Under the pieces are notes generated by a model, which had not been told where the DNA came from, did not search any database, and saw only the letters and a list, made by a program, of their open reading frames with translations. 10,176 nt of DNA from Eubacteriales bacterium (GTDB taxonomy: Bacteria > Bacillota > Clostridia > Oscillospirales > CAG-272): contig JAZQRT010000080.1 in the NCBI GenBank assembly GCA_045629725.1, forward strand, positions 1 through 10,176, given 5' to 3'. Each line of letters starts with the position of its first letter. The first letter of the stretch is position 1. A program made the translations under genes and the position numbers. Shown piece by piece: positions 2,883 through 10,176 of this stretch.

Positions 2883-3905
2883 ATGAAAAGAACACTTGCT
2901 CTTATATTGACCGTTTTCTTCCTGCTTCCTCTTTTGCTCAGCTCCTGCACACCCTCACCGAAGCTGATACAAACACAAGCAGGAGAGCCGATCTACAAAA
3001 AACTCTACAATTATGATTCCAAACTCAATCTGAACGTGGGATACTACAGCCTCGATATTGAAGCCCTTTTCTTCTCCGAAGACCCCGAAAGAAGAATATT
3101 TGAAGTGGAATTCACCGTCAAGATCACCGATTATGAAGAAACCGCCAAGGAGAAGCTTTTCCCCGAGAGCTTTTTCTCGCAAGCATATTTCTTGAATTCA
3201 GAGTCCGAGGAAATTAAAATAATGGGTACACCCATTGAAAACTCAAAAATCGAGCAAAAGGACACAGTTATAATAAGATACGCTTTCGATATGGGTGAAA
3301 GTCCTGCCGAGGGAAACTATGATTTAAACGTATTGTTTACTGATAACACCTCGGAGCCAAGCCTCAGTTTTCCCTATGCCGTGATCGTTCGGGATAAGAT
3401 AGAAATATTAAATGAGGTATTTTACCCGATTTCAGATGAAGCGCTTGTAAAAAAAGTCGGTAGTGATAAATCCTCTCAATTTAAACTGAGAAACGTTTTG
3501 TATCAAGCCGAGTCCGACAGCTTTATAATAATGTACAACAGATATTTGGGAGATTATGATACGGACAATTACTACAGCATAACAATTAACGCCAAAGAGA
3601 AAACGACTTCACATGAGGATCTATGTGAATTGACCAATCTTACAAAACTCTTTGAAAACATCACCGACGAGGATATTAAATCAGCAGAGCTTGCTCTTTT
3701 GGAACAGGTCAATAATTACCGTACAAAGGAAGGACAAACAATCTTTACCTTACATGAATTAAAAAGACTAATCCTCCTCTACCCCTATACCAAAGACTAT
3801 GCCTGCCTGTCGGTTGAATTTATCGTTCCTGCAAAAGAAGGCGACGATGCCCCCTGCGATGACCACTGGCACGTGATGTTTGATGAACAAATTTATCCGA
3901 GATAA
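2883..3905 (+). CDS. Lipoprotein, paralogue B, 340 aa. Signal peptide MKRTLALILTVFFLLPLLLSSC. Tandem duplicate of the preceding gene.
   Basis: The first ~60 nt are nearly identical to those of gene A (about 2 mismatches before the lipobox codons). The body is divergent. The same C-terminal motifs are present (DEDIKSAELALLEQVNNYRTKEGQTIFTLHE ... CDDHWHVMFDEQIYPR). There is only a 39-nt gap and no terminator after gene A, so the two are probably co-transcribed. Confidence 0.8.
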   Translation: MKRTLALILTVFFLLPLLLSSCTPSPKLIQTQAGEPIYKKLYNYDSKLNLNVGYYSLDIEALFFSEDPERRIFEVEFTVKITDYEETAKEKLFPESFFSQAYFLNSESEEIKIMGTPIENSKIEQKDTVIIRYAFDMGESPAEGNYDLNVLFTDNTSEPSLSFPYAVIVRDKIEILNEVFYPISDEALVKKVGSDKSSQFKLRNVLYQAESDSFIIMYNRYLGDYDTDNYYSITINAKEKTTSHEDLCELTNLTKLFENITDEDIKSAELALLEQVNNYRTKEGQTIFTLHELKRLILLYPYTKDYACLSVEFIVPAKEGDDAPCDDHWHVMFDEQIYPR

Positions 3906-6496: not shown

Positions 6497-7900
6497 TTAC
6501 TCTGCGCTTTGCTCATTTTCAACGGAAACTGCTTCCGTTGTGGGTATTTTCTTTCCAAGAACCTCGGGAAGCTGCATTCCTGCAAGAGAGAATACCTCTT
6601 CAAGAGGGGGAACTGACTTCATCATGCCTGAAAGGAAGTTTGCGGTTGAAGTCTTACCGTCACCGTTTTGACCGCCGTCCCAAACAGTAACCTTATCGAT
6701 CTTGATATTCTTGATCGCGTCAACCTGTACACGCATAAGGTCTTCAAGCTTATCGGCTATAAGAAGCTTAAGAGCCGCATCTGTGTCGCCGCCTGCGGAT
6801 TTTACGATCTCTGCAAAACCTGCAGCCTGCTTTTTAAGGATCTCCTCAACGCCTCGAGCCTGTGCTTCCATCTTTGCATAGATAGCATCAGCCTCACCCT
6901 GTGCGCGTCTTCTCATCTGCTCAGCCTCAGCCTCAGCTTCAAGTTCCATTTCCTTCTTCTTAGCCTCTGCACGAACGATAACATCTGCCTCGAGTGTTGC
7001 CTGTTCCTTGGAGCGTCTTGCTTCTTCTGCCGCTCTTTCTGCCGCATAGGACTCCTCAAGGGCTTTCGCTGCCTGGATCTTTTCTGCTGTTGTTGCGATC
7101 TTCATAGCCTCAGCCTGCTTTTCCTTGAGGGCAGCCTCGGACATCGCGATATTCATTTTTGCTGCGTTTTCACCCTGGATAGCAATTGAATTGGACTCGG
7201 AAACCTTGATTCTCTGCTCCATGTGTGCGTTTGCTTCACCGATAGAACCGTCTCTTTCCTGCTCCGCAACGCTCTTTTTAGCATCGTTGATAGCCTTTGC
7301 TGCCGCTTCCTTACCAAGAGCCGCGATATATCCGGACTCATCGCTGATGTCTGTTACGTTTACGTTGATAAGTCTAAGACCGATCTTCTTAAGCTCTGTT
7401 TCCACGTTGCTGCTGACAGCCGCAAGGAACTTGTCACGGTCTGTATTGATCTCCTCGATATCCATCGTTGCAATTACAAGACGGAGCTGACCGAAGATGA
7501 TATCCTTTGAAAGCTCCTGAATCTCGGAAAGCTGGAGTCCGAGAAGTCTTTCAGCCGCATTCTGCATTACGCCGGGCTCTGTTGAGATACCTACTGTAAA
7601 TCTTGAAGGTACGTCAATTCTGATGTTCTGACGTGAAAGTGCATTCTTAAGGTCAACCTGAATTGAAATGGGAGTCAGGTCAAGGTATGAATACGCCTGA
7701 AATATCGGAACAACGAATTCCGCGCCGCCGTGGATACACTTTGAGTTTCTGTTTGTGCCATCCTTGTTTTTACCGATAGAACCGTAGATAACCATGATCT
7801 TGTCGGAAGGACACTTCTTGTATCTTGAGAAGATCCATGCAAGGAAGGAAACAAGTATAATTACTATTGCGCCAATAAGAAAAATTACTTCTTGAGTCAT
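6497..7900 (-). CDS. floT: Flotillin-like SPFH/band-7 protein (FloT / YuaG / YqiK type), 467 aa.
   Basis: N-terminal TM, then an SPFH domain with KCIHGGAEFVVPIFQ (compare B. subtilis FloT KIVRGGGTFVLPVFQ). A long Ala/Glu/Lys-rich coiled-coil region (EA repeats) and a C-terminal DKVTVWDGGQNG (compare DKITVVDTGGSG) follow. The true start is ATG at 7900, with GGAGG 8 nt upstream. The ORF-track TTG at 7915 lies inside the RBS. Confidence 0.9.
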   Translation of the reverse strand: MTQEVIFLIGAIVIILVSFLAWIFSRYKKCPSDKIMVIYGSIGKNKDGTNRNSKCIHGGAEFVVPIFQAYSYLDLTPISIQVDLKNALSRQNIRIDVPSRFTVGISTEPGVMQNAAERLLGLQLSEIQELSKDIIFGQLRLVIATMDIEEINTDRDKFLAAVSSNVETELKKIGLRLINVNVTDISDESGYIAALGKEAAAKAINDAKKSVAEQERDGSIGEANAHMEQRIKVSESNSIAIQGENAAKMNIAMSEAALKEKQAEAMKIATTAEKIQAAKALEESYAAERAAEEARRSKEQATLEADVIVRAEAKKKEMELEAEAEAEQMRRRAQGEADAIYAKMEAQARGVEEILKKQAAGFAEIVKSAGGDTDAALKLLIADKLEDLMRVQVDAIKNIKIDKVTVWDGGQNGDGKTSTANFLSGMMKSVPPLEEVFSLAGMQLPEVLGKKIPTTEAVSVENEQSAE

Positions 7901-7936
7901 TTGTTTTTCCTCCAAATAAAAAATTTAATTAATACA

Positions 7937-7952
7937 AAACTGATATCAGTTT
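7937..7952. promoter_or_regulatory. Perfect 16-bp palindrome AAACTGATATCAGTTT in the 69-nt spacer between the NfeD-like and flotillin genes.
   Basis: Self-complementary sequence read directly from the window. It is a candidate operator or processing site. Its function is unknown. Confidence 0.3.
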
Positions 7953-7969
7953 ATATTTATACGTTTTGT

Positions 7970-8614
7970 TTACTTGCGCTTTACCACAAGTGTTGTTTTG
8001 CCGCTGAGTCCGATTACGGTAACCTCGCTTCCCGTGGGAATTGGTGTGCCTTCGTCCGTAACCGCTTCTCTTTCGGAATATACGCCTTGAAGCATGATAT
8101 GTACCTTGCCAAGTCCCGATCTTTCAGCAGGGATCACAAGCTGAACTCTGCCGGAAACACCCAGAGCATTTTTGTTGTCCGTTGTTCCGTCGCTTCGAAG
8201 CTTCATGACCCATCTTACAAGCAGTGCAAGTAAGAACATCATTGCAAGACCGCAAAGCGTTGAAACAAGTATCGTCCATGCAAGAGAGAGTCCTCCGTTG
8301 TATGCAACCACACCAACCCAACCGAATACGGTAAAGAAAGCCATTATACCTCTTACGGAGAAAATTCGAAGTCCGTCAAGTCCCGAAATATCATCGGCAT
8401 CGGGGATATCACCATCTCCGTATATTCCGTCCGAGGAATCACCGTCGGGCATATCAATATCCCCGTCTGCATCAGCACCTGAATCCCCTCCAAAGCCTAT
8501 AAACATTAAGATCGTCTGTATGAGCGTTATCAGCGTAGTAGGCAACGCTATACACGCAAACACTTGGGATACAAGTCCAAGTGAATTCCACCATTCAATA
8601 AAAAACATTTCCAT
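7970..8614 (-). CDS. NfeD-like (YuaF/YqiJ-type) membrane protein with a C-terminal OB-fold beta-barrel, 214 aa (or 212 aa from the second ATG at 8608).
   Basis: Sits immediately upstream of and co-oriented with the flotillin gene, the classic NfeD-SPFH pairing. Two hydrophobic segments and a C-terminal GRVQLVIPAERSGLGKVHIMLQGVYSER...EVTVIGLSGKTTLVVKR typical of the NfeD short-form OB domain. It has an unusual Asp/Gly-rich insert. RBS AAAGGAAG abuts the first ATG, so the second ATG (8608) has the better spacing. Confidence 0.8.
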   Translation of the reverse strand: MEMFFIEWWNSLGLVSQVFACIALPTTLITLIQTILMFIGFGGDSGADADGDIDMPDGDSSDGIYGDGDIPDADDISGLDGLRIFSVRGIMAFFTVFGWVGVVAYNGGLSLAWTILVSTLCGLAMMFLLALLVRWVMKLRSDGTTDNKNALGVSGRVQLVIPAERSGLGKVHIMLQGVYSEREAVTDEGTPIPTGSEVTVIGLSGKTTLVVKRK

Positions 8615-8627
8615 CTTCCTTTCTTAC

Positions 8628-9182
8628 TTAATAAAGTGCGGTAAGCATTTGGTCTGCAGTTTGTCTGAACTGCGTAGCAAAGTGTCCGTAGATCATTACC
8701 TGAAGAATTTGCTCAAGCTTCTTTTTGGCACCCGGAATCGGTTCTACATAATCCTCAACCGCTCGCCTTGCACTCTCAGCAACAGTATCGGGACGAAGTA
8801 TATCAATATCTCCCCCCGCGATCATATCTACGTAACGATGATAAAGCTCATCATCTGAAATAAGATCGTCAGTTTCGTCCTCAAGCTCTCCTCCGATAAC
8901 CTTGATCAGATTGCATATCTTGTCTATCTGCAACGACTCTCTCAACATATTTATTATTACGATCCTCGCAAATTGACTTTTTGAATAAACTCTTTTTTTG
9001 GGAGACGTCAAAAATCCTCTTTTTACCCAGTTTTGTACAACGTATGGCTCAAGTCCCGTCATAACCGAAACCTGTGAAAGTGTTATACCCCCTGTTGCGA
9101 AGATACCGTCAAAAAGAATTTTTGAACTTCCCTTTTCAATGATTTTAACTTCTATGGTCGTTCCCGGAAACAATTTCGACAT
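8628..9182 (-). CDS. Small MerR-like helix-turn-helix protein (DUF1836-like), 184 aa. First gene of the flotillin operon.
   Basis: RBS GGAGGTG 6 nt upstream of ATG at 9182. The ORF-track extension to 9230 translates across the RBS. The segment GITLSQVSVMTGLEPYVVQNWVKRGFL resembles a MerR-family HTH. The C-terminus is acidic. The stop lies 13 nt before the NfeD start. Confidence 0.55.
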   Translation of the reverse strand: MSKLFPGTTIEVKIIEKGSSKILFDGIFATGGITLSQVSVMTGLEPYVVQNWVKRGFLTSPKKRVYSKSQFARIVIINMLRESLQIDKICNLIKVIGGELEDETDDLISDDELYHRYVDMIAGGDIDILRPDTVAESARRAVEDYVEPIPGAKKKLEQILQVMIYGHFATQFRQTADQMLTALY

Positions 9183-9220
9183 CCTATCACCTCCATTCGA
9201 GTCTTTTCTTCTGTGTCTTA

Positions 9221-9249
9221 ATTGTAGCACATGGTCGCGTGATTGTCAA
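9221..9249 (-). promoter_or_regulatory. Consensus sigma-70 promoter TTGACA-17 nt-TACAAT on the minus strand, driving the MerR-like / NfeD / flotillin / lipoprotein operon.
   Basis: The reverse complement of 9244-9249 is TTGACA and the reverse complement of 9221-9226 is TACAAT, with a 17-nt spacer. An A-rich UP-like tract lies upstream (reverse complement of 9250-9270). Confidence 0.7.
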
Positions 9250-9434
9250 GAGAGTTGGAGTGATTTTTGTTGATTCTGCGTTATGCACAAATCTATCCCG
9301 CGTTTTTTGTAAACCTTAAACAAAACAAGTTATTGACAATAACATAATCAAACAAACTTCTGTCGCAAAACATTTTAAAACATCTCATTTAATATTTTTT
9401 TAAAAATTTTTCATATTTTTTTAAAAAAAGCTAT

Positions 9435-9462
9435 TGACAAATGCACTTTAGTGTGGTAATAT
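9435..9462 (+). promoter_or_regulatory. Sigma-70 promoter TTGACA-16 nt-TAATAT with an extended -10 TG, preceded by AT-rich direct repeats (ATATTTTTTTAAAAA twice) resembling an UP element. It drives the leader ORF and metN.
   Basis: TTGACA at 9435-9440 and TGgTAATAT at 9454-9462. The upstream tracts at 9400-9430 are A/T-rich. Confidence 0.65.
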
Positions 9463-9505
9463 GCTTTCATAAATTTTGAAAGACTTGTGGAAAGGAGACT
9501 ATATC

Positions 9506-9604
9506 ATGTTTGCAAAAAGATCCAAGATGATGATGGATATGATGATGCGCATGTCAGCCATGTGTATGTTTTGTTGTGCAAATTATGATAGAGTCCTTGC
9601 TTAA
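9506..9604 (+). CDS. Short Met/Cys-rich leader ORF, 32 codons: MFAKRSKMMMDMMMRMSAMCMFCCANYDRVLA. It is a candidate leader peptide of a metNIQ attenuator.
   Basis: Strong RBS aaaggag at 9491-9497 with an 8-nt spacer to ATG at 9506. 10 of 32 codons are AUG and 3 are Cys. It sits between the promoter at 9435-9462 and the intrinsic terminator at 9648-9675, upstream of metN. Confidence 0.5.
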   Translation: MFAKRSKMMMDMMMRMSAMCMFCCANYDRVLA

Positions 9605-9647
9605 ATCGCGAAGTCATCAACATCGTCTTTCTTAATGTTGTAATCTT

Positions 9648-9675
9648 GCGGAGAGTGCGGCTCTCCGCTTTTTAT
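9648..9675 (+). terminator. Intrinsic terminator in the metN 5' leader, a putative attenuator.
   Basis: Stem gcggagag(t) / (g)ctctccgc, 8-9 bp and GC-rich, with a 3-5 nt loop, followed by tttttatttg. It sits 43 nt after the leader-ORF stop and ~28 nt before the metN RBS. Confidence 0.7.
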
Positions 9676-9702
9676 TTGTAAACTCAAAGGAGTTGTGATA
9701 AG

Positions 9703-10176
9703 TTGAACACAATGATAAAAATAGAACACCTTAACAAGACCTACCACCTGAAATCGGGTAACGTAGATGCTGTTAAGGATGTAAACCTCGATATTAAAGA
9801 GGGAGAGATATACGGTGTTATCGGTTATTCGGGAGCAGGAAAATCTTCCCTTATCCGATGCGTCAACCTTCTTGAAATACCCGATTCGGGTGCCATCACT
9901 GTTGGTGAAGAAAAACTGACTTGGATGGAAAACGATAAAATGAAGGTCATCAAGACCTCGAAGTTAAACAAAGCCCGCCGCGGTATCGGAATGATATTTC
10001 AGCACTTCAATCTTCTTGACAGAAGCACGGTGTTCGACAACGTGGCATATCCCCTGAAGCATTCGGGAATGTCAAAATCCGAAATTTCCCAAAGAGTCAA
10101 GGAGCTTTTGGAGCTTGTGGACCTTACGGATAAGATCGACGTTTATCCCTCCCAGCTTTCCGGCGGACAGAAGCAG
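9703..10176 (+). CDS. metN: Methionine ABC transporter ATP-binding protein MetN, N-terminal 158 codons. It is truncated at the window end.
   Basis: RBS aaaggag at 9686-9692. The start is either TTG at 9703 (10-nt spacer) or the in-frame ATG at 9712 (MIKIEHL..., matching the MetN N-terminus MIKLSNI of E. coli and MINLQDV of B. subtilis). Walker A GYSGAGKSSLIRCVNLLE, then ARRGIGMIFQHFNLL, then the LSGGQKQ signature. These are near-identical in pattern to E. coli and B. subtilis MetN. Confidence 0.9.
   Translation, partial: MNTMIKIEHLNKTYHLKSGNVDAVKDVNLDIKEGEIYGVIGYSGAGKSSLIRCVNLLEIPDSGAITVGEEKLTWMENDKMKVIKTSKLNKARRGIGMIFQHFNLLDRSTVFDNVAYPLKHSGMSKSEISQRVKELLELVDLTDKIDVYPSQLSGGQKQ

Follow-up and report, generated by a model that had tools for sequence, protein, structure and literature searches.

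A candidate methionine-tuned leader-peptide attenuator upstream of metN in an uncultured gut Clostridia bacterium

A short open reading frame (ORF) crowded with methionine codons, followed by an intrinsic terminator, precedes a metN homologue at one end of a 10,176-nucleotide (nt) contig (JAZQRT010000080.1) from the metagenome-assembled genome of an uncultured gut Clostridia bacterium; this whole stretch of DNA is called the window below. We propose, from sequence, that the element functions as a classical leader-peptide transcription attenuator tuned to methionine that controls a metNIQ-type importer, and we place the probability of this reading at about 0.75. The leader is possibly tuned to Cys-tRNA in addition to Met-tRNA. 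The proposal builds on directly observed sequence elements, their conservation, a fixed linkage to metN, RNA pairing potentials, and the presence of T-boxes or S-adenosylmethionine (SAM) riboswitches at the same position in other loci. An initial annotation of the window had suggested such a ribosome-mediated, methionine-tuned attenuator of metN, and had named, among the findings that would speak against it, the following two: no conservation of the small ORF (sORF) in related loci, and no RNA structure competing with the terminator. The sORF proves to be conserved and a competing structure is found in its relatives, and this core reading is therefore supported.

The leader locus lies on the plus strand. 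It opens with a sigma-70-type promoter (9434-9462) consisting of the −35 element TTGACA (9434-9439), a 17-nt spacer, and an extended −10 element, TGgTAATAT (9454-9462), which in a promoter scan match 10 of 12 consensus positions plus the TG; the position of this promoter implies a transcription start near 9469. A Shine-Dalgarno sequence (SD; AAAGGAGA, 9491-9498), read from the sequence, lies 8 nt 5′ of the ATG of the leader ORF (MFAKRSKMMMDMMMRMSAMCMFCCANYDRVLA; 9506-9604), which comprises 32 codons and a UAA stop (9602-9604). Ten of the codons are ATG, such that nine internal AUG codons occur among the 31 that follow the start, and three encode Cys. The internal AUG codons (9527-9568) and the Cys codons (9563-9565 and 9572-9577) together occupy what we term the sensing zone (9527-9577). 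Within the ORF is a hairpin (9545-9567) formed by AUGCGCAUG and CAUGUGUAU (9545-9553 with 9559-9567) and followed by the U-rich sequence GUUUUGUUGU, which a scan for terminators flags as terminator-like.

Region 2, the 5′ strand of the putative antiterminator, covers the last sense codons and the stop codon (9594-9613). A small hairpin seen in folds (9618-9640; CAACAU at 9618-9623 with AUGUUG at 9635-9640) lies inside the antiterminator, and the intrinsic terminator (9645-9675) comes next. The terminator hairpin (9648-9668) has 9 base pairs (bp), 6 of them GC, and a loop of three (GCGGAGAGU-GCG-GCUCUCCGC, 9648-9656 with 9660-9668), and its U-run, which starts at 9669, reads TTTTTATTT / UUUUUAUUU. 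Folding assigns the window copy −14.7 to −15.9 kcal/mol. The 5′ part of metN follows (9687-10176), with an SD at 9687-9693 and a start at either TTG 9703 or ATG 9712, and is cut by the contig end. The best NCBIfam match of this fragment is TIGR02314 MetN at 179 bits, below the full-length cut-off. The 30 nt that separate the U-run from the metN start contain no apparent promoter specific to metN. When the whole window was scanned with Rfam at E ≤ 1, no S-box, T-box or other family was found in 9183-9702, and none of the leader families (Trp_leader, His_leader, Leu_leader, Phe_leader, Thr_leader and others) gave a covariance-model match in this interval. Thus, the promoter, the SD, the 32-codon ORF with its 10 AUG and three Cys codons, the GC-rich hairpin with its U-run, the metN homologue and the lack of an S-box or T-box upstream of it, all reported in the initial annotation, are borne out.

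The density of Met codons in this leader is far above chance. We assembled 160 metN loci from collections of genomes and metagenomes and scored the 300 nt preceding metN by the largest number of ATG codons in any stop-free 12-codon stretch. The window reaches 8. At least 5 are present in 14 of 156 sense-strand upstream regions, in none of the 156 antisense regions and in no shuffle of the metN upstream regions out of 3120; among 6036 other 300-nt tiles, 9 get that far.

Scans based on metN among the 160 loci returned no MetN with more than 70% identity to that of the window. A broader protein search yielded one at 80% identity, on a contig (L161) that also carries a clearly homologous leader. 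A profile built from these two leaders, extended to 42 amino acids (aa), was then used for a small-protein search and recovered 16 sORF clusters (P0121-P0136) of 30-37 aa, in which the SD, the ATG, the frame and the approximate length are conserved and whose consensus is MF.R.S.MMMDMMM[CR]M..MCM..HAH.D.ISA. Every one of the 21 leader-bearing loci that were fetched (L161 and L164-L183) presents the sORF, then a terminator, then MetN (ABC_tran and NIL domains), and the stretch ATGATGATGGATATGATGATG is invariant in all of them. The Met-rich sORF, whose lack of conservation the initial annotation had named as a refutation, is thus conserved at orthologous loci. Genes for MetI (BPD_transp_1) and MetQ (Lipoprotein_9) come next in most loci whose contig extends that far, and a few loci of the L170 type have an opposite-strand gene call after MetN. 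On the far side of the leader the neighbours vary, and include DUF1836/MerR genes (as in the window), GH67N/DUF4838, GntR with an ATP-binding cassette (ABC) exporter, NTP_transferase and HTH_3. Because metN is constant while the upstream neighbours vary, the leader is tied to metN and not to its neighbourhood.

The promoter is likewise shared. The arrangement of TTGACA and TGnTAAYAT is found in the eight relatives whose fetched sequence covers the promoter; the L183 stretch includes only the −10 element and the L161 stretch neither. An Rfam scan of the loci of seven relatives gave no match at E ≤ 0.1. Full-length relatives of the downstream proteins score 389 bits for MetN (cut-off 500), with the Pfam NIL domain, and 193 bits for MetI (cut-off 212), and MetQ matches the NlpA family. 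The operon is most simply read as a metNIQ-type methionine importer, with methionine specificity a matter of inference since MetN, MetI and MetQ all score below the NCBIfam equivalog cut-offs.

An alignment of 10 distinct sequences (the window and nine relatives), spanning ATG to U-run, reveals the constraints on the leader. The distance from the ATG to the terminator end is 166-170 nt, and the sole indel within the ORF is one whole codon, an extra ATG. None of the nine internal Met codons varies, nor does Cys20, and the sites in the ORF that do vary are spread over the three codon positions as 15/13/13, without third-position bias. This spread, together with the invariant Met codons, is more readily reconciled with a regulatory leader than with a protein subject to ordinary purifying selection.

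It nonetheless seems fair to ask whether the sORF encodes a functional small peptide rich in Met, Cys and His, serving perhaps in Cu(I) or other metal binding, as an oxidation sink or in signalling, with the terminator merely ending its own transcript and metN separately controlled. Such a peptide would account for conservation across 16 clusters, for the invariance of residues other than Met (S6, D11, D28, A25 and A32) and for the recurrent His-Ala-His motif, and Met-, Cys- and His-rich motifs are typical metal ligands. We consider this explanation very improbable. Beyond the substitution pattern just described, the sORF always lies directly upstream of metN whatever the neighbourhood, and no promoter of metN's own is apparent between the U-run and the gene. 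Its conserved C-terminal codons also coincide with RNA pairings, as set out below (AUGAU with the start-codon region, UCUCUGC with the SD and the terminator arm). The precursor of a peptide made by the ribosome and modified after translation (RiPP), or of a bacteriocin, is a reading that we discarded: genes for modification or export are missing from the vicinity, and metN is the sole constant neighbour.

In one subtype of the family, whose leaders begin MFERKSV..., the leader terminator is separated from the metN SD by an additional GC-rich stretch of about 150-190 nt (187-340 in L161; about 2168-2318 in L170-L176). This stretch is conserved among the MFERKSV... loci and absent from the subtype of the window, and could be a second regulatory element or an insertion.

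A ribosome-mediated attenuator would require an RNA structure that excludes the terminator and depends on ribosome position. When the window leader was folded with a masked ribosome footprint, the terminator was always retained, together with long-range pairings to the 5′ untranslated region (UTR). A different result is obtained from what we call the stalled fold, in which pairing is confined to the RNA that a ribosome stalled on the Met codons leaves available. For the window, this fold joins 9599-9602, 9606-9609 and 9611-9613 to the terminator 5′ arm (9645-9656), with the hairpin 9618-9640 enclosed between them. The predicted energy of this antiterminator is −12.0 kcal/mol, versus the −14.7 to −15.9 kcal/mol of the terminator.

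The relatives provide the stronger case. Their stalled folds share a 7-bp helix in which the last three sense codons, 5′-UCU(C/U)(U/C)GC-3′, pair with the GCGGAGA of the terminator 5′ arm. This family helix is part of the minimum-energy stalled fold of all nine relatives, at −11.7 to −21.9 kcal/mol compared with −14 to −18.7 kcal/mol for their terminators, and it surpasses dinucleotide shuffles, only 0.01-0.15 of which are equally good. Across the alignment 69 of 70 cells are paired, versus 46-68% when the partner is slid by 1-3 columns. Exchanges between CU and UC retain C-G or U-G pairs despite the residue changes they cause (ISA, IFA, VFA, VSA and VLA). The corresponding register in the window pairs 9594-9600 (UCCUUGC) with 9648-9654. 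At the family level, therefore, a structure exclusive with the terminator and dependent on ribosome position is present.

The terminator stem is paired in 77 of 77 cells in the family, with nearly invariant arms and loops that differ; such near-invariance is as expected because the segment must fit two partners. The 3′ strand of the small inner hairpin, (A/G/C)UGUUG, is conserved in all relatives. Its 5′ strand shows 78% of cells paired, but the alignment there is unreliable across the two subtypes and we base no claim on it. The hairpin inside the ORF (9545-9567 in the window) is paired in 90 of 90 cells, versus 0-88% in slid registers, with two pairs that vary on one side only, and is a candidate RNA polymerase pause hairpin that would synchronise ribosome and polymerase.

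A further set of interactions emerges from an RNAalifold consensus of the untranslated RNA, computed from the full leaders, including the 5′ UTR, of 10 family members. Here the SD (GGAGA, columns 24-28) pairs with region 2 (UCUCU, columns 128-132) in 9-10 of 10 sequences per pair, with the window breaking one, and AUCAU at the start codon pairs with the AUGAU of codons 27-28. The same consensus contains a hairpin around the first MMM run, the 9-bp hairpin of Met and Cys codons described above (9545-9553 with 9559-9567), and the formed terminator. On this structural model, we propose that the leader SD may act as an anti-antiterminator, its GGAGA pairing with region 2 when the leader is not translated.

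These components can be assembled into a mechanism, each step of which is drawn from sequence and predicted structure. Transcription would start near 9469, and a ribosome would load at the SD (9491-9498) and translate the 32 codons of the leader. A pause of RNA polymerase at the hairpin 9545-9567 may let the ribosome catch up. When Met-tRNA(Met) is plentiful, the ribosome would pass the nine internal AUG codons and reach the stop codon (9602-9604), where it would cover region 2 (9594-9613). The terminator hairpin (9648-9668) with its U-run could then form, and transcription would stop before metN. When Met-tRNA is scarce, the ribosome would stall within 9527-9577 (codons 8-24), with its leading edge reaching only to about 9580-9590. 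Region 2 would remain free to pair with the emerging 5′ arm of the terminator, and the resulting antiterminator would allow read-through into metNIQ. Stalling at the three Cys codons from a shortage of Cys-tRNA may act likewise. Without any translation of the leader, the 3′ part of the ORF, region 2 among it, would be engaged by the SD (GGAGA) and the start-codon region, and the terminator would form by default. The geometry fits this scheme, in that a ribosome whose A site holds the last Met or Cys codon should protect the RNA to about 9580-9590, and one at the stop codon should protect about 9587-9614.

Leaders of similar design occur elsewhere. At least five further lineages have an unrelated Met/Cys-rich sORF and a terminator directly upstream of metN: Holdemanella (L004, L005, L083 and L088; MKTMMMSMMQMYM...), Agathobaculum-like bacteria (L035, L145 and four near-identical loci, and L159; ...RMLMCMNMDMAMPM...), the L099 locus (MRFDRQNSMMMMAMHMCRMCM...), Lachnoclostridium phytofermentans (L026; ...TMNMKMCCNNGCMCNSM...) and Flavobacterium (L047, L069, L080 and L138; ...NMAMCCMTAMQ...). 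L160 also has a Met/Cys sORF directly upstream of metN, without a clear terminator; each of the other lineage leaders comes with an SD or promoter of its own and with a clear intrinsic terminator. The leaders of these lineages share Met/Cys runs only, not sequence. In each terminator-bearing lineage, the terminator 5′ arm is able to pair with the 3′ end of the sORF. Candidate leaders in Streptococcus (L066 and L144) and at L074 and L131 were discarded as they lie inside upstream coding genes.

Other metN loci carry familiar RNA sensors at the position of the leader. No known RNA family was found upstream of metN in any of 11 leader-bearing loci scanned with Rfam at gathering thresholds. Among 24 other loci scanned, a T-box lies directly upstream of metN in five (L003, L009, L014, L017 and L021) and a SAM riboswitch in four (L011, L025, L030 and L032). 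The matches at these nine loci indicate that the scan is able to detect RF00162 and RF00230.

The lack of resemblance among lineages bears on both peptide-based explanations. For a functional small peptide, it is a further difficulty that the leaders of other lineages match the family in their Met/Cys runs only. Alternatively, the leader might sense free methionine or SAM through its nascent peptide, in the manner of TnaC or eukaryotic arrest upstream ORFs, instead of responding to tRNA starvation. The family peptide is indeed more conserved than codon counting requires, as illustrated by the invariant D between the MMM runs. However, independent lineages have peptides that are unrelated beyond their Met and Cys codons, and a ligand-induced arrest would activate the importer at high methionine, which is the wrong logic for uptake. 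Region 2 sits at the stop codon and the sensing codons 26-75 nt upstream of it, which is the layout of attenuators that sense starvation. We judge sensing through the nascent peptide to have only a slight chance of being correct, and favour stalling for want of charged tRNA.

Cys codons recur as well: over eight lineages, Cys makes up 16 of 266 residues (P about 4e-6 versus a 1.5% background). This recurrence may be partly structural, because UGC and GCA strengthen AUG/CAU hairpins, or the Cys codons may add sensitivity to Cys-tRNA. More speculatively, Met/Cys leaders with terminators could constitute a widespread and repeatedly arisen class of "sulfur amino acid" attenuators at metNIQ in Clostridia, Erysipelotrichales, Flavobacteriia and perhaps Streptomyces. 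Such a class might functionally replace S-boxes and T-boxes, its Cys codons providing dual sensing of Met-tRNA and Cys-tRNA, with the terminator 5′ arm of the window family mimicking an SD so that region 2 switches among three partners. We regard this broader proposal as tentative and somewhat more likely to fail than to hold.

Some related loci depart from this design. The closest leaderless metN loci (L162, 1-370; L163, 1-300; and L001), at about 70% MetN identity, are Lachnospiraceae-like and have a conserved promoter in common, along with a 5′ UTR of about 140 nt that contains no Met-rich sORF and no obvious terminator. L001, from a Lachnospiraceae metagenome-assembled genome, has no Rfam match upstream of metN; a TwoAYGGAY RNA (RF01731, 113.9 bits) on its minus strand (1027-1190), about 2.8 kb upstream of metN, is unrelated to the leader. 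A His-Ala-His sequence (CAC GCU CAU) stands just 3′ of the Met/Cys run in family leaders (alignment A4, columns 70-84) and in the otherwise unrelated leaders L035, L145 and L159. CAU is the reverse complement of AUG, and this recurrence may reflect pairing with Met codons instead of selection on the peptide.

Several observations weigh against the proposed attenuator. The stalled-fold antiterminator of the window is no better than dinucleotide shuffles, of which a fraction of 0.44-0.64 are as good. In the family register, the window contributes the single unpaired cell of the alignment, C9596 opposite A9652, and this internal C-A mismatch makes it the weakest copy. No helix of the family alignment includes a two-sided compensatory change at any base pair; the structural support consists of conservation, one-sided changes and register specificity, and is not full covariation. 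Among the other lineages, only the Holdemanella antiterminator beats shuffles. Finally, methionine starvation should also lower the charging of initiator tRNA and hence translation of the leader, which in this model favours termination. The initial annotation had found no convincing antiterminator by eye and had advised folding the leader in search of a structure exclusive with the terminator. Such a candidate does appear in the stalled state and is well conserved in the relatives; the doubt persists for the window itself, whose copy is mismatched and equals shuffles.

Alternatively, the window copy could be decaying or non-functional, with a terminator that is constitutive or leaky and a metN that does not respond to methionine. 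The antiterminator mismatch is found in none of the nine relatives, and the C-terminal peptide of the window (CCANYDRVLA) is the most divergent of the family. Decay would be hard to square with the intact promoter, SD, Met codons, ORF length, stop position, spacing and terminator, and the alternative register still sequesters 8 of the 9 nucleotides of the terminator 5′ arm. Moreover, antiterminators need only form first kinetically, and need not dominate thermodynamically, as is established for the trp attenuator. We therefore hold decay of this copy to be improbable, though less so than either peptide-based explanation, and retain the attenuator as the preferred reading.

Elsewhere in the window, the intergenic region that harbours the leader is shared with a divergent promoter (9249-9221; 11 of 12 consensus matches plus TG) for a conserved cluster of three minus-strand genes (6497-9182). 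These encode a 184-aa protein (8628-9182), a membrane protein of 214 aa (7970-8614) that includes an acidic Asp/Gly-rich segment, and a flotillin (6497-7915), whose closest named relatives are from "Clostridia bacterium" and "Ruminococcaceae/Oscillospiraceae bacterium". In L164 and L183 the position of the 184-aa protein is taken by a counterpart of equal length with DUF1836 and a weak MerR_1 match. At least the DUF1836 gene of this cluster is syntenic in L164 and L183. On the plus strand, tandem paralogous lipoprotein-like genes (1752-2843 and 2883-3905) resemble each other in their signal peptides, which are nearly identical (MKRSLALILTVFFLLPLLLGSC and MKRTLALILTVFFLLPLLLSSC), and at their C-terminal ends, which are similar (...GCGDHKHAMFSENIYPK and ...PCDDHWHVMFDEQIYPR). 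On the minus strand at 175-320, the Rfam families Phe_leader, Thr_leader and Leu_leader match below threshold, the first with 36.9 bits and E 0.0028 where its gathering score is 55. Sequence of this region, also on the plus strand at about 175-215, forms a GC hairpin between U/A runs on both strands, like a bidirectional terminator. A long CT-rich/GA-rich hairpin adjoins it, and both lie about 100 nt 3′ of a plus-strand ORF already open at the left end of the window, with its stop at 76-78. This region is probably not a second attenuator but a bidirectional terminator with a low-complexity hairpin, the minus-strand peptide FLFSFLYYFF having the look of a by-product of pyrimidine runs.

The textbook regulators of methionine uptake and synthesis in Gram-positive bacteria are S-box riboswitches, T-boxes and proteins. 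In Firmicutes, attenuation by leader peptides is considered rare, yet it has been documented for histidine (PMC2965389; PMC9413887). To this picture the present work adds a well-defined conserved family with all four attenuator elements and several independent analogues from gut Clostridia, Erysipelotrichales and Flavobacterium, which suggest a wider spread than the literature does. The occurrence of a leader, a T-box or a SAM riboswitch at the same position in different metN loci provides an example of sensor swapping at one operon, and many small "hypothetical proteins" of gut metagenomes gain a likely function. Two questions arise from these leaders. How does a sensor made of Met codons contend with the simultaneous drop in initiator-tRNA charging, and do the interleaved Cys codons make a combined sulfur-amino-acid sensor?

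The regulatory principle itself is not new; this is a familiar type of switch that for methionine had previously only been predicted. The initial annotation went too far in taking a Met-codon leader at a methionine importer to be an undescribed mechanism. In Streptomyces lividans, a metL peptide (…CMCRRMCAF) was predicted upstream of metNIQ, where, by the authors' account, no typical Rho-independent terminator is present (PMC8079986). In Campylobacter jejuni, a MetL was predicted upstream of metBA (PMC3847290), and its translation was later confirmed by initiation-site profiling; CJsORF19 (MMYQMR) lies upstream of Cj0772c, a gene for a Met-binding protein (bioRxiv 10.1101/2022.11.09.515450). 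Searchable literature yielded annotation-level predictions only and no functional test of any predicted Met leader, and the S. lividans and C. jejuni papers yielded no alternative structures and no methionine-response test. Like the window family, these peptides are encoded by Met-enriched short ORFs before methionine transport or biosynthesis genes, and that of S. lividans mixes Met and Cys. They have only 3-4 Met codons and are not homologous to the window family, which differs from them in its clear terminator and conserved antiterminator.

Other systems share parts of this design. Polycysteine leaderless sORFs of mycobacteria are experimentally proven attenuators that act on translation (bioRxiv 10.1101/834739). 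They too are rich in a sulfur amino acid, sense the supply of charged tRNA and control downstream genes of sulfur metabolism, but they sense Cys only. Comparative genomics has identified His leader attenuators of Firmicutes at hisS and hisZ of the B. cereus group, in Peptostreptococcaceae and in Erysipelotrichales (PMC2965389; PMC9413887). As proposed for our loci, these replace a T-box or protein regulator at orthologous genes and have a patchy distribution with apparently independent origins, whereas they sense histidine and are unrelated in sequence. Met T-boxes and S-boxes (SAM-I) before metNIQ or metNPQ in Firmicutes share with the leader their genomic position and their terminator output, and the T-box also reads tRNA charging. 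Their sensing differs, in that it relies on binding between RNA and tRNA or RNA and SAM with no need for translation, and their motifs are absent from the leader-bearing loci scanned.

The closest counterparts in architecture are the E. coli leaders trpL, hisL, leuL, pheL and thrL, although the present leader has no sequence or covariance-model similarity to the Rfam leader families. The E. coli leaders and the window family have in common a promoter, an SD, a short ORF enriched in the codons of the sensed amino acid, and mutually exclusive antiterminator and terminator structures ahead of the operon. A pause hairpin in the leader, a candidate in the window family, and a default to termination in the untranslated state, predicted for the window family, are further points of agreement. 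The leader described here differs in being directed at methionine, with nine internal AUG codons and accompanying Cys codons, in its Clostridia host, and in having an importer as its target rather than a biosynthetic operon. Its proposed anti-antiterminator would likewise be of another kind, built from the SD and start region of the leader itself and not from the codon run.

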